Positions 1 to 6,125 of a stretch of DNA of 9,306 bases are shown here, one piece after another. Origin of the DNA: a virus (taxonomy: Duplodnaviria; Heunggongvirae; Uroviricota; Caudoviricetes); IMG/VR virus record IMGVR_UViG_3300013942_000118, positions 1 to 9,306 of that record; one strand, 5' to 3'. Under the pieces are notes generated by a model. The model worked only from the letters and a program-made list of their open reading frames with translations. It was not told the DNA's origin and made no database searches. The position numbers and the translations under genes were made by a program. Position 1 is the stretch's first letter; every line of letters starts with the position of its first letter.

Positions 1-825
1 TCACCCGGTGAAAGTACCAATAAAGGTTTCTACTTTGCTGTCTTTGAATTTTTCAACAAGCAGATCACGAAATTCGTTAGCCATTTCTTCCTGCACTGCT
101 TCCAGCTGAATAATGCGCAGAACCAGTACAGGGCGATCACCAGTGATAATGCTGAGGCGTAATTTAAACGGACGTTCTTTCAGGCCTTCAAACGGAACGC
201 ATTTAAACTCAAATGCTACTGGCATAATGTCTTTGGTTTTCGCTTCGACAGACTCCATCAGAGAGCGTTTGCCGCTGAAGTCATTGTCTTCAAAATCAGC
301 GGTCTGGTTTGCTTCAATCGTGATTTTACGGACCGCCGCAGCCGCTTTTGTTGCCTGAATGGCGTCACCATTAGCATCAAAGCCCACAAGGTAGTCGGCC
401 CAGTCTTCAATCCATTCTGCCAGTGACTTCTGGGAGTTACGCTCGCCGTTAACAGACAACAGGGCAGAGAACGGTGCTGTCTTTTTCAGTTTGAGAGTGG
501 CGGTGTTATCTGCGTGACCTGGTTCATCAATAGTACCCAGGTTAAGCATACTGACGGCTCGCATATTATCAGCATCGATAAAGCAGCGGGTGCCTTCATC
601 TGCAAGATCTTTAGAATAACGGGTAAAGTCATCGATGCTGGCAGTGGAAAGCGCACCACGGAAACGGAAGCGATTTAAATTAAATTTTTCCAGATCATGA
701 ATGCGGAAATTCTCAGGCAATGCCACAGCATCGGCACCAATCTTACTGATAATTTCATTAACACCCTGAGCAGAAATAAGGGCATGGATTTGATTAATTG
801 CGGTTGCGTCTAAGTTCTGAGACAT
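1..825 (-). CDS. yfdQ: DUF2303-family prophage protein (YfdQ-like), 274 aa
   Basis: Complete minus-strand ORF: ATG at 825-823, TGA at 3-1, GAGGA Shine-Dalgarno 6 nt upstream (complement of 833-837). Family assignment is from memory of YfdQ/DUF2303 in CPS-53-like prophages; no search run. Confidence 0.8.
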
Positions 826-890
826 AATAAGTCCTCACTATATAAAGATATTCAGTGATGAGATAAATAATCAGTTTATTAAAAACGATA

Positions 891-1253
891 TTAACGACCT
901 GCTGCGCGGAGTTTTCCGTCAGGTTCACCGGCAAGAGTCAGTAATTGTCCCTGGTCTTCCTGCAGAATAGTCAGGCGACCACCGCGATTGACATACATCG
1001 GCGTTTCGGTGGTGTCTTCTTCGGAAATTTTCCCGCGGTTAGTCGGGCGAACATATGAGAGTTTGTGTTTGATTTTTACACGGTTCTCATCAAACGGTTC
1101 GATTTCCAGGTTGAGCGAGACCTTACCTTTGGTTTTCGTGTTCATCACACCGGAAGCGACTTCACTGAGAACTGCGCCGATTTTGGTTTCAAATACGCCG
1201 CCGTCCAGCTCCCCGATAAATGCCTGCACATCAGTACTGCGTTCGCTAGCCAT
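891..1253 (-). CDS. Small prophage early protein, 120 aa (YfdP-like by recollection); start chosen at internal ATG
   Basis: The 226-aa track ORF has an Arg/Cys-rich, non-protein-like N-terminal 106 codons. The ATG at 1253-1251 (MASERSTDV...) has a GGGGAG Shine-Dalgarno 7 nt upstream and gives 120 aa directly upstream of, and co-oriented with, the DUF2303 gene. Stop TAA at 893-891. Confidence 0.65.
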   Translation of the reverse strand: MASERSTDVQAFIGELDGGVFETKIGAVLSEVASGVMNTKTKGKVSLNLEIEPFDENRVKIKHKLSYVRPTNRGKISEEDTTETPMYVNRGGRLTILQEDQGQLLTLAGEPDGKLRAAGR

Positions 1254-1271
1254 TTTGCTGCTCCCCATCAT

Positions 1272-1287
1272 ATCGACCCTGCAGGGT
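1272..1287. repeat. 16-bp perfect palindrome CGACCCTGCAGGGTCG in the leader of the leftward early operon
   Basis: Read directly from sequence; lies 19-34 nt upstream of the 120-aa gene start on the minus strand. Confidence 0.8.
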
Positions 1288-1302
1288 CGGTTGGTTTCTC
1301 CA

Positions 1303-1390
1303 CAAAACAGAGAAGAACACCTGCGGTGGCAGCCGCCCGGATGGATTGGGTTATGAGCCCGTCGTCCGGTGATGCTCTTCTCTGTTTTGT
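1303..1390. repeat. 15-bp perfect inverted repeat (ACAAAACAGAGAAGA / TCTTCTCTGTTTTGT) enclosing a 58-nt GC-rich loop
   Basis: Arms at 1303-1317 and 1376-1390 are exact reverse complements; read directly from sequence. Function unknown. Confidence 0.8.
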
Positions 1391-1722
1391 AAAAAGGACG
1401 GTACCAGCCGGAAGCAAGGGTACAAGCTGATACCGCCAGGACTACACACAGCATAAAGTTGTGGTGCCGGGTGCCTCCCGGTGCCTGGCGAAGGTTGCAC
1501 ACCAGGCGGGTGGGTATCCACAGAAGGTCGACTGTCAGCCTCAACCTTAACCCGCGTGCGCTGAGCCGCATTCACCACAACGCTAAGGATTCTCTCTGGT
1601 TGAAAATACTTAGCTGTTATGTGCCTGCTTTTAGCCACATCAGGCGAGGTGGACCTAGTTATTCCCCAACAACAAGGATTTGGTTAATCTGGATATCCCC
1701 AACAACTAGCTGAGTATTCAAC

Positions 1723-2244
1723 GTGATAGCTGAACTGTCTGCGGCTATGGCCGCTATAAAGGAGACTGCCGGTCTTGCTAAGGTTATTAATGACGCGAAA
1801 ACGGATGCAGAAGTTAAAGCTGCAACCATTGAACTCCAGAACAAACTAATCACGCTTCAGGCAGAATGCTTCTCTCTTGGCGATGCGATCCGCCTTCGTG
1901 ATGAAGAGGTGATGCATCTCAAAGCAAAAATTGCAGAGTTTGAAGATTTTTGTGCCAAGGTAGAAGGATATGTCCTTGATCAGCTTGACTCTGGTGCTTT
2001 TGTTTACTCTAAAAATGAAATTGTGAGTGGAAAAGAAATAACTGTGCATCTGTGCCCACTTTGTTATTCCAAAAATATAAAATCGATACTTCATCCGCTT
2101 CCAGTAGGTAAAACTTCTCATTTTCTTACAAGCCGTTGCCTTCACTGTGAAAATAAATTTCTTATGGAAAAAAATCCGATGTACGAACGACCAAGATCAT
2201 TACGTGAGTTGGGGCGAGATCTGAATTCGCCTTGGATTCCTTAA
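1723..2244 (+). CDS. Hypothetical protein with N-terminal coiled-coil and C-terminal CxxC-x25-CxxC zinc-ribbon, 173 aa from GTG 1723 (165 aa from ATG 1747)
   Basis: Clean ORF ending TAA 2242-2244 and followed by an intrinsic terminator. Markedly AT-rich compared with the flanking DNA, by eye. Heptad-like charged N-terminus, then HLCPLC...RCLHCE. No obvious Shine-Dalgarno or sigma70 promoter upstream. Transcribed convergently with the PL-like promoter. Confidence 0.55.
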   Translation: MIAELSAAMAAIKETAGLAKVINDAKTDAEVKAATIELQNKLITLQAECFSLGDAIRLRDEEVMHLKAKIAEFEDFCAKVEGYVLDQLDSGAFVYSKNEIVSGKEITVHLCPLCYSKNIKSILHPLPVGKTSHFLTSRCLHCENKFLMEKNPMYERPRSLRELGRDLNSPWIP

Positions 2245-2287
2245 ATCTTGCATTGGTTGGATGATACCCAGATTGTTAAAGAGCTAA

Positions 2288-2309
2288 GCGTCCTGTAGGG
2301 CGCTTTTTT
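2288..2309 (+). terminator. Rho-independent terminator downstream of the 173-aa ORF
   Basis: Stem GCGTCC (2288-2293) / GGGCGC (2298-2303) with one G-U pair, loop TGTA, followed by TTTTTT (2304-2309). Confidence 0.6.
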
Positions 2310-2388
2310 GTTGCTAACGAATCATCCTGGACTTCATATGCCCCAGGCGGATACTTCGTGGGCGTCCTGCCTGTTTGTTGTTTCTCTT

Positions 2389-2425
2389 GGGTACATTATG
2401 TATCTCAAAGGTACATTGTCAAGTA
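2389..2425 (-). promoter_or_regulatory. PL-like leftward promoter with GTAC-containing operator half-sites (OL-like)
   Basis: On the minus strand: TTGACA (complement of 2417-2422), 16-nt spacer, CATAAT (complement of 2395-2400). Overlapped by repeated GGTACATT motifs that match the GTAC cores of the operators at 3152-3223. Confidence 0.45.
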
Positions 2426-2449
2426 TAAAAAAACCTGCCGAAGCAGGTT
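2426..2449 (-). terminator. Rho-independent terminator of the repressor gene
   Basis: On the minus strand: stem CCTGC / GCAGG (plus 2434-2438 and 2443-2447), loop TTCG, followed by a U-run (plus A-run 2427-2433). Begins 13 nt after the repressor stop. Confidence 0.65.
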
Positions 2450-2461
2450 CATAAACATTGA

Positions 2462-3136
2462 TTAGGCTTTGATTTTGTATCTTCTTGGTTTTCCTGAGAA
2501 AATCACAGTTCCAATTATAGAGCAATTACCGTTGATCTTAATGTAAGGCTCAGGCCAGTTTGGGTTTAACGCTTTGAGATAACGCTGTGTCCCATCTTCT
2601 ATCAACCTTTTGAAGGTGGTTTCACCTGTATCGTGCATCAATGCAATAACGTCGTCACCGTGGCAGGCAGGTACTTCAGGATCGACAAAAATCATGTCTC
2701 CCGGGCGGTACTCATCAATCATTGAATCACCTATCACCCGCAAGATATAAGTCATTTCCCCACAGGGTACAGGGCAGGGATACGTTTCTGCTGTGCTCAA
2801 ATCAACCTCAGAATATCCAACTTCTTTCCATGCTCCGGCCTGTACCCATGATATGACAGGGACTAATGTGATTTGTTTATTAGTGATTGAAACATCAGGT
2901 TTTTTTGTGATGTTCGTTGTCTGGTGTTCTTGATCGAGCCATCCGACAGGCAGGTCGAAACATTTTTCGATGTGTCGTGCCATGCTGTCACCGATATTTT
3001 TAGTAGCACCATCTCCCATAAACCTGCTGGTCTGGGTTGGCTCGCGATCAATCATAGTGGCAAAGGAAGAATTCCCGCCAACACCATCTCTCAGTTTTCT
3101 GGCGTTAGACCGCCGGATGTCATGGATTGTTTTCAT
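2462..3136 (-). CDS. Prophage CI-like repressor, HTH plus S24 (LexA-like) autopeptidase domain, 224 aa
   Basis: ORF ATG 3136-3134 to TAA 2464-2462. C-terminal half carries an Ala-Gly candidate cleavage site (VQAGAW), the GDSM serine motif and a downstream Lys (TFKRL), typical of the LexA/cI S24 fold. Sits divergent from a Cro-like gene across a palindromic operator region. No Shine-Dalgarno before the ATG. Confidence 0.9.
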   Translation of the reverse strand: MKTIHDIRRSNARKLRDGVGGNSSFATMIDREPTQTSRFMGDGATKNIGDSMARHIEKCFDLPVGWLDQEHQTTNITKKPDVSITNKQITLVPVISWVQAGAWKEVGYSEVDLSTAETYPCPVPCGEMTYILRVIGDSMIDEYRPGDMIFVDPEVPACHGDDVIALMHDTGETTFKRLIEDGTQRYLKALNPNWPEPYIKINGNCSIIGTVIFSGKPRRYKIKA

Positions 3137-3226
3137 AACGAAATTAAAACCCTTGTACCGTTAAGGTACAAGTATCTTGAAGGTTCATTTCAATCATGTA
3201 ATATGTACACCGGAGGTACATATTGT
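3137..3226. promoter_or_regulatory. Divergent PRM/PR-type control region with two palindromic operators
   Basis: Operator 1 is CTTGTACC-N5-GGTACAAG (3152-3172); operator 2 is ATATGTAC-N7-GTACATAT (3201-3223). Candidate PR on plus: TTGAAG (3177-3182), 16-nt spacer, TAATAT (3199-3204), GGAGG Shine-Dalgarno 3212-3216, cro ATG 3227. Candidate PRM on minus: TTGTAC (complement of 3166-3171), 17-nt spacer, TTTAAT (complement of 3143-3148), ending about 6 nt before the repressor ATG. Confidence 0.6.
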
Positions 3227-3427
3227 ATGAAAGCGTATTGGGACTCTTTAACCAAAGAACAGCAGGGCGAGTTGGCCGGAAAAGTTGGCTCAACACCTAG
3301 CTACTTACGGCTGGTTTTCAATGGCTATAAAAAAGCCAGTTTTGTGCTGGCTAAAAAACTTGAGCAATGCACGTCAGGTGCAATTACGAAATCTGACTTA
3401 AGACCGGATATCTATCCGAAAGATTAG
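3227..3427 (+). CDS. Cro/YdaS-like small HTH regulator, 66 aa
   Basis: ATG at 3227 is in frame inside the longer track ORF and has a GGAGG Shine-Dalgarno 10 nt upstream; TAG at 3425-3427. Product MKAYWDSLTKEQQGELAGKVGSTPSYLRLVFNG... resembles YdaS/Cro-family HTH proteins. Divergent from the repressor. Confidence 0.8.
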   Translation: MKAYWDSLTKEQQGELAGKVGSTPSYLRLVFNGYKKASFVLAKKLEQCTSGAITKSDLRPDIYPKD

Positions 3428-3458
3428 CAGAACACTTTCAATTTTTAACCACAGAACG

Positions 3459-4022
3459 ATGAGGCTAATCGTGGGTAAGCATCACTGGAAAATAGAAAAA
3501 CAGCCTGAGTGGTACGTGAAAGCTGTCAGAAAAACTATCGCGGCGTTGCCGGGTGGTTACGCTGAAGCGGCTGACTGGCTGGATGTAACAGAGAACGCAT
3601 TATTTAACCGCCTTCGTGCCGATGGCGATCAGATTTTCCCGCTGGGATGGGCAATGATTTTGCAACGTGCTGGTGGAACTCACTTCATTGCTGACGCTGT
3701 GGCGCAGTCTGCAAATGGCGTCTTTGTGTCTCTTCCTGACGTCGAGGATGTGGACAACGCCGATATTAACCAGCGTCTGCTGGAAGTCATTGAACAGATC
3801 GGCAGTTATTCAAAACAGATTCGTTCAGCAATCGAAGACGGTGTAGTGGAACCGCATGAGAAGACAGCAATTAACGACGAGCTGTATCTCTCAATTTCGA
3901 AGCTGCAGGAGCATGCAGCACTGGTCTACAAAATCTTTTGCATTTCAGAAAGTAATGACGCCCGCGAGTGTGCAGCTCCGGGCGCCGTGGCGTGTCGTGA
4001 CTGTGGAGAAACTAACGCATGA
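3459..4022 (+). CDS. CII-like phage regulatory protein (CP76/YdaT-like family), 187 aa
   Basis: ORF immediately after the Cro-like gene, the usual position of cII/ydaT. Family assignment from memory, moderate. Start is uncertain: ATG 3459 has a weak Shine-Dalgarno, while in-frame GTG 3471 is preceded by GAGG. Stop overlaps the next ATG as ATGA. Confidence 0.65.
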
Positions 4023-4377
4023 ACAGTTTAACAACACACTACCGTCGCTCGCAACTGATTGCGCTTCCTGTACCGGGTGGAAAAGCGAAGGTGGAGTATT
4101 GCTATGCAGTTAATGTACCAGGTGACAGGGAAATTGTAACCCACAGCTTTGCTGAGTGGGCTGTGGGTGATTTCAACCGGCAGAAGGAGACAGTCCTTTG
4201 CGACAAGTTAACCGCTGGTTCAAAGATCACTACGGAGTGCCCGTCAGAGTCATTCGTTGGGAGCCGGAAACACAACGAGTTATCTACCTCCGCGAAGGCT
4301 ATGAGCATGAGTGCTTCAGCCCGCTCGAACAGTTTCGTCGTAAATTCAGGGAAATAGAGGTCGGTCATGAGCACTAA
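4019..4377 (+). pseudogene. Unknown early gene apparently split over two reading frames (one-base frameshift near 4170-4215), or a 112-aa ORF plus an overlapping 59-aa TTG-initiated ORF
   Basis: Frame of ATG 4019 gives a plausible N-terminus but a low-complexity Ser/Ala-rich tail to 4357. The -1 frame from about 4171 to TAA 4375-4377 reads ...[58 protein letters not shown], which looks like genuine protein and ends 8 nt into the next gene. No XXXYYYZ slippery heptamer seen. Confidence 0.4.
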
Positions 4378-5308
4378 ATTAACCGGCTATGTATGGGATG
4401 GTTGCGCTGCATCAGGCATGAAATTATCCAGCGTGGCAATTATGGCCCGCCTGGCTGATTTCAGTAATGACGAAGGTGTGTGCTGGCCATCAATTGAAAC
4501 TATTGCCCGTCAGATTGGCGCGGGGATGAGTACCGTCAGGACGGCTATCGCACGGCTGGAAGCAGAAGGCTGGTTAACGCGTAAGGCGCGTCGCCAGGGT
4601 AACCGCAATGCGTCGAATGTTTATCAGCTTAACGTTGCGAAGCTTCAGGCAGCGGCATTTTCTCAACTGTCAGATTCTGACCCGTCAAAATCTGACGCAT
4701 CAAAATCTGACCCGTCAAAATTTGATGCGTCGAAATCTGGCAAAAAAGCGGGTTTTCACCCGTCAGAATCTGGCGGGGATCCGTCAGTAAAATCAAAACA
4801 TGATCCGTCAGATAAAAAACCTTCTCGTCCGGACGCTTCGCAACCGGACACGCAGACGGATGAACAGGATTTTTTAACTCGCCATCCTGATGCGGTTGTA
4901 TTCAGCCCTAAAAAGCGCCAGTGGGGAACGCAGGATGATTTGACCTGCGCACAGTGGCTCTGGAAAAAAATCATCGCCCTGTACGAGCAAGCCGCCGCAT
5001 GTGACGGCGAGGTGGTTCGTCCCAAAGAACCGAACTGGACAGCCTGGGCAAACGAAATTCGCCTGATGTGTGTACAGGATGGTCGTACTCACAAACAAAT
5101 CTGCGAGATGTACAGCCGCGTCAGCCGCGATCCGTTCTGGTGCCGTAACGTGCTCAGCCCGTCGAAGTTGCGGGAAAAATGGGATGAGCTTTCCCTGCGC
5201 TTATCACCGTCCGTCAGCACGTACACCGAAAAACGCGAAGACCCGTACTTCAAATCCAGTTACGACAACGTGGACTACAGCCAGATCCCGGCAGGATTCA
5301 GGGGGTGA
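4367..5308 (+). CDS. Replication initiator (lambda O-like: N-terminal winged-helix DNA-binding domain, acidic/Ser-Pro-rich linker, C-terminal domain), 313 aa
   Basis: ATG 4367 with GAGG Shine-Dalgarno 6 nt upstream; TGA 5306-5308. N-terminal region resembles phage replication-initiator HTH domains. An iteron array lies inside the coding sequence, as for ori in lambda O. Sits at the O position of the early-right operon. Confidence 0.75.
   Translation: MSTKLTGYVWDGCAASGMKLSSVAIMARLADFSNDEGVCWPSIETIARQIGAGMSTVRTAIARLEAEGWLTRKARRQGNRNASNVYQLNVAKLQAAAFSQLSDSDPSKSDASKSDPSKFDASKSGKKAGFHPSESGGDPSVKSKHDPSDKKPSRPDASQPDTQTDEQDFLTRHPDAVVFSPKKRQWGTQDDLTCAQWLWKKIIALYEQAAACDGEVVRPKEPNWTAWANEIRLMCVQDGRTHKQICEMYSRVSRDPFWCRNVLSPSKLREKWDELSLRLSPSVSTYTEKREDPYFKSSYDNVDYSQIPAGFRG
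4669..4740. repeat. Iteron-like tandem array (about 5 units of 14-15 bp, consensus near CCGTCAAAATCTGA), putative phage origin
   Basis: Units GTCAGATTCTGAC (4669), GTCAAAATCTGAC (4684), ATCAAAATCTGAC (4698), GTCAAAATTTGAT (4714), GTCGAAATCTGGC (4728). Degenerate CCGTCAG copies continue to about 4815. Several units are internally palindromic. The array encodes the DPSKSDASKSDPSKFDASKS repeat in the initiator. Confidence 0.6.
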
Positions 5309-5310
5309 TC

Positions 5311-5799
5311 ATGAGTCTGTTAAATGACGTTCAGAAATTCATTGAAGCCCATCCGGGGTGTACTTCCGGAGACATTGCGGATGCTTTTGCAGGTTACTCA
5401 CGGCAGCGCGTTCTGCAGTCTGCAAGCAAGTTACGTCAGAGTGGGCGTGTGGCTCACCGTTGTGAAGGAGATACACGCAGACATTTCCCGCGCCTGACTG
5501 AGAGAGCGCAGGAGCCGGAACCACAACCAGTTCGTGAAACCAGACCTGTGCGCAATTTCTATGTCGGCACTAACGATCCACGGGTGATTTTGTGCCTGAC
5601 CCGCCAGGCTGAAGAACTGGAGTCCAGGGGCTTATACCGTCGTGCTGCAACGGTGTGGATGGCGGCATTCCGTGAAAGCCACTCCCAGCCAGAACGAAAC
5701 AATTTTCTGGCGCGTCGTGAACGGTGTTTACGGAAAAGCAGTAAGCGGGCTGCATCGGGTGAAGAGTGGTATCTGTCAGGGAATTACGTGGGGGCGTAA
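5311..5799 (+). CDS. PerC-family-like transcriptional regulator with an N-terminal HTH-like extension, 162 aa
   Basis: ATG 5311 with GGGGG Shine-Dalgarno 5 nt upstream (the track start GTG 5305 overlaps the previous stop). C-terminal segment AEELESRGLYRRAATVWMAAFRE...RRERCL resembles the PerC/Pch signature. From memory only, moderate. Confidence 0.55.
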   Translation: MSLLNDVQKFIEAHPGCTSGDIADAFAGYSRQRVLQSASKLRQSGRVAHRCEGDTRRHFPRLTERAQEPEPQPVRETRPVRNFYVGTNDPRVILCLTRQAEELESRGLYRRAATVWMAAFRESHSQPERNNFLARRERCLRKSSKRAASGEEWYLSGNYVGA

Positions 5800-6125
5800 T
5801 GACGACGTTAACTCAATGCCAGCAGCAGGTGCTGGATATGCTGATTTCTTATCAGAAAGAGCGTGGCTTTCCGCCAACCAATCAGGAGGTGGCAACCATG
5901 CTGGGATACCGTTCGGTGAATGCAGCGGTGGAGCATCTTCGCGCACTGGAGAAAAAAGGCGTCATCACGATAAAGCGTGGCGTGGCACGGGGGATAACGC
6001 TTCATACCGCTGTGAAGGACGACGACAGCGAGGCGGTCGGGATTATCCGCGCACTGCTTGCCGGTGAGGAAAACGCCAGGCTGCGTGCAGCCCACTGGTT
6101 ACATGAGAGGGGCCTGAAAGTATGA
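5799..6125 (+). CDS. LexA N-terminal DNA-binding-domain paralogue lacking the S24 peptidase domain, 108 aa
   Basis: Start ATG 5799 overlaps the upstream stop (TAATG). LTQCQQQVLDMLISYQKERGFPPTNQEVATMLGYRSVNAAVEHLRALEKKGVITIKRGVARGITL aligns by eye with E. coli LexA residues about 4-68 at roughly half identity. The protein stops after about 40 further residues with no peptidase motifs. Confidence 0.8.
   Translation: MTTLTQCQQQVLDMLISYQKERGFPPTNQEVATMLGYRSVNAAVEHLRALEKKGVITIKRGVARGITLHTAVKDDDSEAVGIIRALLAGEENARLRAAHWLHERGLKV

Follow-up and report, generated by a model that had tools for sequence, protein, structure and literature searches.

The 90-base gap between a repressor gene and a Cro-like gene in the IMG/VR virus record IMGVR_UViG_3300013942_000118 is very probably the right operator region (OR) of a lambda-like prophage with an immunity module of the e14/SfV type, arranged as a three-site switch. 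The gap occupies positions 3137–3226 of the 9,306-nucleotide stretch that was analysed (positions 1–9,306 of the record; hereafter the window) and extends in its entirety from the repressor ATG (3136–3134, minus strand) to the Cro-like ATG (3227–3229, plus strand). The description of this gap as an operator region with a leaderless repressor mRNA is correct but already known, because the operator region of phage SfV has been annotated and the leaderless mRNA of ymfK, the equivalent repressor gene of Escherichia coli K-12, was published in 2014. The third OR site, the pair of left operators (OL) and the cross-genus geometry described here are refinements of a well known kind of system and may or may not be found in earlier papers. 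An analysis of e14 by Mehta, Casjens and Krishnaswamy in 2004 is said to have predicted binding sites for the repressor and for Cro.

Identity of the module

Positions 3100–3260 of the window (161 bases) are base-for-base identical to K-12, and the gap itself is 100% identical to the ymfK–ymfT (cohE–croE) gap of the e14 prophage. The window is 98.7–99.9% identical to the ymfK/ymfT/ymfL loci of E. coli, K-12 C600 included, and the 1.2-kilobase (kb) region is 95–99.7% identical to phages PhiR29, SfIV, SfV, Ayreon, cdtI and Stx2c phages. Of 5426 complete E. coli genomes, 2023 have this region and 1323 carry at least 80% of it. The repressor shows 100% amino-acid identity to its SfIV counterpart and, with repressor, Cro and intergenic sequence all near-identical, the module belongs by sequence to the e14/SfV immunity group. 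In the GenBank record of SfV, a 'putative operator region' corresponds to window positions 3153–3221, reaching from the first of the palindromes described below to the second.

An earlier note on this DNA, made from its letters without database searches, had read the gap as a divergent repressor/Cro control region, and the genes on both sides agree with it. A Peptidase_S24 repressor lies to the left and a small helix-turn-helix protein of the YdaS/HTH_3 type to the right, followed by a CII/CP76-like gene, which is the gene order of lambdoid CI/Cro modules. For comparison, a scan of one genome per species gave orthologous loci with repressors of 73–88% identity in 16 other Enterobacterales genera, ranging from Klebsiella and Pantoea to Edwardsiella and Rahnella; the alignments discussed below comprise 17 sequences.

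Palindromes and operator motif

Two palindromes with GTAC cores are present at 3152–3172 and 3201–3223, as the earlier note had proposed. Palindrome 1 has perfect 8-base arms around a centre of five bases (CTTGTACC-GTTAA-GGTACAAG) and palindrome 2 perfect 8-base arms around a centre of seven (ATATGTAC-ACCGGAG-GTACATAT). Read in the register of palindrome 1, palindrome 2 has 9-base arms with one mismatch and the same 5-base centre length (ATATGTACa-CCGGA-GGTACATAT). The motif that both share, TGTACCNNNNNGGTACA (core TGTACC-N5-GGTACA), has five matches with at most two mismatches in the 9.3-kb window; the chance expectation is 0.24, and none of 200 shuffles reached five. Four of the five are grouped on either side of the repressor gene. 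The fifth, at 2755–2771 (TTTCCC-CACAG-GGTACA, two mismatches), falls within the repressor coding sequence over an invariant YPCPVPCG peptide; it could be a chance match or an additional weak site, and its conservation is uninformative because the protein is under constraint there.

The palindromes had been said to bracket the elements of the rightward promoter PR and the repressor promoter PRM. Their positions hold, but they overlap the promoters rather than bracket them. Palindrome 1 covers the −35 hexamer and spacer of PRM, its core (the candidate operator OR-a) spanning −18 to −34 of that promoter. Palindrome 2 spans the end of the PR −10 hexamer, the predicted PR start and the Shine–Dalgarno sequence of the Cro-like gene (GGAGG, 3212–3216), and its core (OR-b) takes in the last base of the same −10 hexamer. 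The proposal of two operators is likewise supported for both palindromes, but the gap probably holds three, the third candidate (OR-m) being centred on the PR −35 hexamer (TTGAAG) and at −43 of PRM.

The leaderless repressor transcript

PRM can be written TTGTAC-17-TTTAAT, with 8/12 matches to the consensus; it and PR were placed by hand and checked against the published start (PRM) and against conservation. The −10 hexamer (3148–3143) ends six nucleotides before the repressor ATG, where about six had been predicted, and the Shine–Dalgarno sequence that had been reported missing is indeed not there in usable form: the single purine run upstream (AAGGG) stops 13 nucleotides short of the ATG. 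Transcription starts in K-12 were mapped by differential RNA-seq by Romero et al. (2014; PMC4681348), whose Table S3 lists for ymfK a class I start that coincides with the gene start (leader length 0 nucleotides). In the start-site table of the same paper the ymfK coordinate is one base higher than the gene start, and the leader is therefore 0 or at most 1 nucleotide long. Since positions 3100–3260 are identical to K-12, this mapping applies directly to the window, and the leaderless repressor mRNA that had been proposed is thus a published observation for the identical K-12 sequence. Five E. coli mRNAs have leaders shorter than 10 nucleotides in that study, three of which encode the prophage regulators ymfK, racR and dicA.

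The repressor gene itself has the properties of a leaderless gene. No in-frame start codon is available between the preceding stop and position 3136, and no usable Shine–Dalgarno sequence precedes the A of the ATG at which K-12 transcripts begin. The 5′ end is predicted to be unstructured, with the first 19 nucleotides of the mRNA unpaired. The N-terminal residues MKT are kept in all orthologs. We also considered Met28 as the start and rejected it; residues 1–27 are conserved and lie within a domain shared with a Pseudomonas repressor (see below). Across the 17 sequences the −10 element of PRM reads nnnAAT (xxTAAT in 14) and ends six nucleotides before the ATG, or seven in two of them, while the six bases between −10 and ATG vary freely. 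A fixed spacing with variable bases in between is the pattern expected of a start site on the ATG. The −35 hexamer of PRM is invariant in the orthologs, as part of GGTACAAG.

Palindrome 1 read on the minus strand (3172–3152), an 8-pair stem followed by GGTTTTAATT, was flagged as terminator-like by a scan. This raises the question of whether the palindromes are mainly RNA or DNA hairpins, acting as a terminator or attenuator for transcripts from the Cro side, rather than operators. We regard this as scarcely credible. The mapped repressor start is already past palindrome 1, and the PRM transcript therefore never contains its hairpin. What is invariant in palindrome 1 is the arm sequence itself and not mere pairing, and the compensatory changes that a hairpin would tolerate are seen in none of the orthologs. 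Moreover, the 6+5+6 motif is found again in the promoter spacer at OL, as well as at OR-b and OR-m, both of which have imperfect arms. We therefore rejected palindrome 1 as a terminator of the repressor transcript; it could still attenuate any transcription coming in from the side of Cro, such as might be initiated at a CII-dependent establishment promoter.

The candidate left operators

The motif recurs at a second cluster beyond the other end of the repressor gene. Just past the repressor terminator lies PL, the leftward early promoter, whose CTTGACA and CATAAT elements are invariant in 17/17 sequences; the Ayreon record has a promoter annotated at the equivalent position. Two candidate operators, OL1 and OL2, are associated with it. 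OL1 reads ATGTACC-N5-G[GA]TACAT in the 16 other genera, with invariant arms and a free centre. OL2 shares one base, the last, with the PL −10 hexamer and extends over the predicted PL start (∼2388); its promoter-side arm is ATGTACC (in the sense of the repressor) in 16/17 sequences and ATGTACT in Edwardsiella, while its distal arm is weak and variable. The block CTTGACA-ATGTACC-N5-G[GA]TACAT-AATGTAC as a whole is kept in 17/17 sequences. A second operator cluster at the leftward early promoter, as is found in lambdoid phages, is thus conserved in all orthologous loci.

In the K-12 start-site list, from uninduced cells, the ymfK start appears, but there is no forward start between coordinates 1200691 and 1207102 and no reverse-strand start at the position equivalent to PL, though this promoter matches the consensus at 11/12. 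PR and PL look silent under these conditions, which fits a lysogen in which both are shut and PRM is active.

Conservation of the candidate operators across genera

In the aligned gaps the operator arms are invariant, while nearly every sequence has 5-base centres of its own. Allowing up to three mismatches, the motif has 48 matches in the 17 gaps, compared with 0.44 in shuffles, and all 48 are centred at −26/−27, −43/−44 or −76/−77 from the repressor ATG; these counts are not independent, because the loci are related by descent. The informative part is the combination of fixed arms and free centres, the pattern expected of half-sites that are read by a protein. OR-a, centred at −26/−27, has no mismatch in 15/17 sequences and 12 different 5-base centres among the 17, and OR-b is found at −76/−77 in 17/17. 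Of the promoter elements between them, the CTTG of the PR −35 region is kept in 16/17 sequences (CTTT in Pantoea), and the position of the PR −10 hexamer is occupied by TAATAT, TAGAAT, CATAAT or TATCCT. The gap therefore contains several palindromic operator candidates overlapping PR and PRM, two strong and one weak, at fixed positions in the 17 sequences. The comparison with related prophages that the earlier note had called for thus supports its operators, with arms invariant and centres free in 16 genera and the motif recurring at PL.

Two natural comparisons say that the operator motif goes with the repressor. In an E. coli ET791 prophage the left flank and ymfL are the same, but the repressor and Cro are different, and repeats of the CTAAG/CTTAG type are present at both OR and OL (locus L005, positions 1570–1640 and 2300–2400). 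The left recombination junction of this prophage lies just left of OL, near window position 2376. Conversely, the repressor of the Pseudomonas phage vB_Pae_BR144a resembles the repressor of the window over residues 1–71 only (59% identity), and its Cro is 33% identical, yet its gap (locus L030, positions 1116–1183) has the sites TGTACC-TCCTG-GGTACA, TGTACC-GTCAA-GGTTCT and TGTACA-TTTCT-GGTACA with centres at −77, −42 and −26 from the ATG. Unconstrained DNA at this divergence would be expected to lose such sites. These two cases lend support to the earlier proposal that the operator consensus defines the immunity specificity, since the heteroimmune ET791 has another motif and the Pseudomonas phage with the shared N-terminal domain keeps the sites. 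As a side observation, the Cro of vB_Pae_BR144a is annotated with 112 amino acids and its similarity to the Cro of the window begins at residue 14, so that its start may have been annotated too far upstream.

The least certain of the three sites in the gap is OR-m. If only the two obvious palindromes bind the repressor, the GGTTCAT/CTTG block must have been kept as the PR −35 or as the site of another factor. That CTTG belongs to the PR −35 hexamer and would be conserved regardless speaks for such a model, as do the three mismatches of OR-m in the window, which are within chance expectation, and its variable arm, which drifts to at least four mismatches in 3/17 sequences. However, the GGTTCA arm is invariant although it sits in the PR spacer, which normally drifts, and it differs by a single base from the half-site GGTACA. 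In 14/17 sequences it is separated by one 5-base centre from an arm like AGTACC, giving a site with at most three mismatches that is always at −43/−44 (AGTACC-N5-GGTTCA in most of the other genera). The Pseudomonas phage, in which neutral DNA has presumably been scrambled, has a site with two mismatches at −42. Thus, a gap with only two operators appears unlikely, and we favour three.

Several points weigh against a three-site switch. In a promoter scan with a threshold of 9/12 neither PR nor PRM was called, each matching at 8/12. By chance alone, a window would contain 2.45 matches of the quality of OR-m, and OR-m is not significant on its own because it has three mismatches in the window; what argues for it is its conserved position, in loci related by descent. 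OR-a and OR-m abut at 17 base pairs (bp) centre to centre (∼1.6 helical turns), a spacing that is unusual for cooperative binding and could mean that binding is mutually exclusive. If affinity follows the match to the consensus, the repressor on OR-a, the best palindrome and the one over the PRM core, would shut its own promoter first, unlike the order in lambda, which makes activation of PRM from OR-m a conjecture drawn from that phage. Finally, searches of the accessible literature for binding data or motifs of YmfK and YmfT/CroE returned lists and expression data and no binding experiment, and the operator function of the sites is accordingly something that we infer.

A model of the switch

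In the three-site arrangement, two divergent promoters share 90 bp, with PRM starting on the A of the repressor ATG and the predicted PR (TTGAAG-16-TAATAT) driving the Cro-like gene, then the CII-like gene and then the replication genes. A repressor dimer would read TGTACC-N5-GGTACA via its N-terminal domain, leaving the five central bases unread. In a lysogen, repressor bound to OR-b, OR-m, OL1 and OL2 would keep PR and PL shut, and repressor at OR-m (−43) would be in a position to stimulate the weak PRM by aiding the polymerase, much as cI bound to OR2 does in lambda; it is the geometry of the −43 site alone that hints at such an activation. OR-a would serve to shut PRM, occupied by excess repressor or, in lytic growth, by Cro. 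On DNA damage, active RecA would cause the repressor to cleave itself at Ala100–Gly101, which would release both early operons. Self-cleavage is supported by the S24 domain, by homology to the C-terminal domain of lambda cI, to UmuD and to LexA, by the conservation of Ala-Gly, Ser and Lys, and by the induction of e14 genes on DNA damage.

The wiring of the switch may depart from that of lambda, although we advance this only as a tentative and rather doubtful suggestion: a perfect OR-a on the PRM core is combined with a variant GGTTCA half-site at −43, from E. coli to the Pseudomonas phage. Should sites closer to the consensus be bound more tightly, the repressor would occupy its own promoter before the other sites, leading to tight negative autoregulation, and a deliberately weak site at −43 would set a threshold for the shut-off of PR or the stimulation of PRM.

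The genes of e14 are induced by DNA damage according to PMC11228462 (2024), a paper which proposes that host LexA controls e14 promoters directly via weak LexA boxes. In this paper, induction of e14 genes by azidothymidine (AZT) depends on LexA cleavage (lexA3 background) and 13 weak LexA boxes of e14, taken from earlier work by Courcelle et al., are deemed likely to be functional. The terms 'ymfK' and 'phage repressor' are absent from its text, 'cohE' occurs once and the e14 repressor is not discussed. For the promoters considered here, direct control by LexA seems to us highly improbable. No LexA box (CTGT-N8-ACAG, at most one mismatch) is found in 2300–3300, around PR, PRM and PL, the nearest being at 3803; the repeated motif has a different spacing and different arms; and the locus encodes its own S24 self-cleaving repressor. 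The effect of lexA3 on e14 could also be indirect, because a lexA3 strain cannot raise its RecA levels. A suggestion as tentative as that of a different wiring is that the SOS induction of e14 as a whole results from self-cleavage of YmfK, acting through the OR and OL sites, and not from weak LexA boxes.

Genes of the module and its surroundings

The coordinates of the module are collected in Table 1. The repressor matches Peptidase_S24 in Pfam (E = 1.5e-26) and the transcriptional repressor family phrog_4 in PHROG (E = 1.7e-49), and its structural matches in the PDB are the lambda cI C-terminal domain, UmuD and LexA. Ala100–Gly101 (cleavage site) and the catalytic residues Ser138 and Lys176 are invariant in the 17-sequence alignment, while Asp137, beside Ser138, is replaced by Glu in 2/17. 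No Pfam helix-turn-helix domain was found in residues 1–90, and the only structural lead for the DNA-binding part is a weak PDB match to 5d50 ('Repressor', E = 0.0018). A hairpin with a T-run is present at the position of the repressor terminator in all orthologous loci, and a terminator is annotated there in the SfV and Ayreon records. The Cro-like protein has matches to YdaS_toxin (E = 1.6e-5) and HTH_3 (E = 9e-4), both of which are under the Pfam gathering cut-off, and a clear PHROG match to the transcriptional repressor family phrog_35 (E = 3.3e-15). The CII-like protein matches Phage_CP76 (E = 1.6e-13) and phrog_101, a family of CII-like transcriptional activators (E = 3.5e-70). At the orthologous loci of E. 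coli the three genes are named ymfK, ymfT and ymfL in RefSeq.

Table 1. Features of the immunity region in window coordinates. Mismatches are to the motif; operators are candidates.
Feature	Position	Strand	Basis or remark
PL, leftward early promoter, TTGACA-16-CATAAT (11/12 consensus)	2395–2422	−	Promoter scan
OL2 operator (candidate), TGTTTC-TCTTG-GGTACA, 2 mismatches	2379–2395		20 bp from OL1
OL1 operator (candidate), TGTATC-TCAAA-GGTACA, 1 mismatch	2399–2415		Fills PL spacer
Intrinsic terminator of repressor gene	2431–2450	−	8-pair stem, then TTTTTTT
cI-type repressor gene, ortholog of e14 ymfK (cohE), 224 amino acids	2462–3136	−	Open reading frame and domain matches
Repressor start codon and PRM transcription start	3134–3136	−	Published K-12 start, identical sequence
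PRM −10 hexamer, TTTAAT	3148–3143	−	Ends 6 nucleotides before ATG
OR-a operator (candidate), TGTACC-GTTAA-GGTACA	3154–3170		Core of perfect palindrome 3152–3172; centred at −26 of PRM
PRM −35 hexamer, TTGTAC (3/6 matches, 17-bp spacer)	3166–3171	−	One arm of OR-a
OR-m, proposed third operator, AGTATC-TTGAA-GGTTCA, 3 mismatches	3171–3187		Conserved position
PR −35 hexamer, TTGAAG	3177–3182	+	Read from sequence
PR −10 hexamer, TAATAT (16-bp spacer)	3199–3204	+	Predicted start ∼3211–3213
OR-b operator (candidate), TGTACA-CCGGA-GGTACA, 1 mismatch	3204–3220		Core of palindrome 3201–3223
Cro Shine–Dalgarno, GGAGG	3212–3216	+	10 nucleotides before Cro ATG, inside OR-b centre; invariant in orthologs
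Cro-like gene, ortholog of e14 ymfT (croE), 66 amino acids, YdaS/HTH_3-type	3227–3427	+	Pfam, PHROG
CII-like activator gene, ortholog of e14 ymfL, after Cro-like gene	3459–4022	+	Pfam, PHROG

To the left of the module, an open reading frame (ORF) of 173 amino acids (1723–2244, plus strand) with its own terminator (2286–2305, plus strand) is convergent with PL, and PL transcripts would therefore run antisense through it. It belongs to phrog_1244 (unknown function), has a coiled-coil N-terminus and two cysteine pairs at its C-terminus, and occupies the place of SfV orf33 or K-12 ymfJ; it looks like a moron. To the right, a plus-strand ORF of 119 amino acids (5766–6125) looks like the N-terminal DNA-binding domain of LexA, with no S24 cleavage domain attached. 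The ORF 6122–6394, which looks RusA-like, is broken by a run of ten N at 6369–6378, either an assembly gap or a masked stretch. At the right end, a plus-strand ORF that runs off the window (8998–9306) looks like the first reading frame of an IS3-family transposase, and the late-control region of the prophage appears to be interrupted by an insertion sequence.

Comparison with known systems

The module is very common, most of it being present in about a quarter of complete E. coli genomes, K-12 included, and it is also carried by Shigella serotype-converting, Cdt and Stx2c phages. The current understanding of phage switches is not changed by it. The map, with three OR and two OL sites, the promoters PR, PRM and PL and a leaderless start, can serve as a template for footprinting and reporter tests, permits the immunity-group typing of prophages by sequence alone and offers a simpler, testable account of the DNA-damage response across e14.

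The closest system is e14 of K-12, which has the same gap sequence (over 161 bases), a 1.2-kb region that is 98.7% identical and the same gene order and names. It differs in its flanks. The left flank of e14 is ymfJ-ymfI-ymfH-xisE-intE, in place of which the window has the 173-amino-acid plus-strand ORF and yfdP/yfdQ-like genes, and the full set of replication and late-control genes on the right of the window has been lost in e14. SfV, SfIV, cdtI, the Stx2c phages, Ayreon and PhiR29 share the repressor, Cro and gap at the 95–99.7% level given above; they differ from the window by a few base changes, mostly in operator centres, with a change from TGTAC to TGTAT in one arm of OR-b. The racR (Rac) and dicA (Qin) genes of K-12 are prophage regulators with leaderless mRNAs like that of ymfK, but belong to other protein families and have other operators.

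Phage lambda has divergent PR and PRM promoters with three operators; OR2 has its centre near −42 of PRM, and OR3 covers the core of that promoter. The lambda cI mRNA begins with the A of its start codon, and the −10 hexamer ends six nucleotides upstream. The region described here is similar to lambda OR in having one site at about −42/−43, another over the PRM core and a second cluster at PL, and its repressor has an S24 self-cleaving C-terminal domain that is homologous to that of lambda cI, as indicated by the PDB match. It differs from lambda in the sites themselves, which are of the form TGTACC-N5-GGTACA instead of the 17-bp TATCACCGC-type sites, and in their spacing, which is 17 and 33 bp compared with 23–24 bp in lambda. 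Furthermore, the best match to the consensus is the PRM-proximal site, and neither the DNA-binding domain of the repressor nor the YdaS-type Cro is a homolog of its lambda counterpart.

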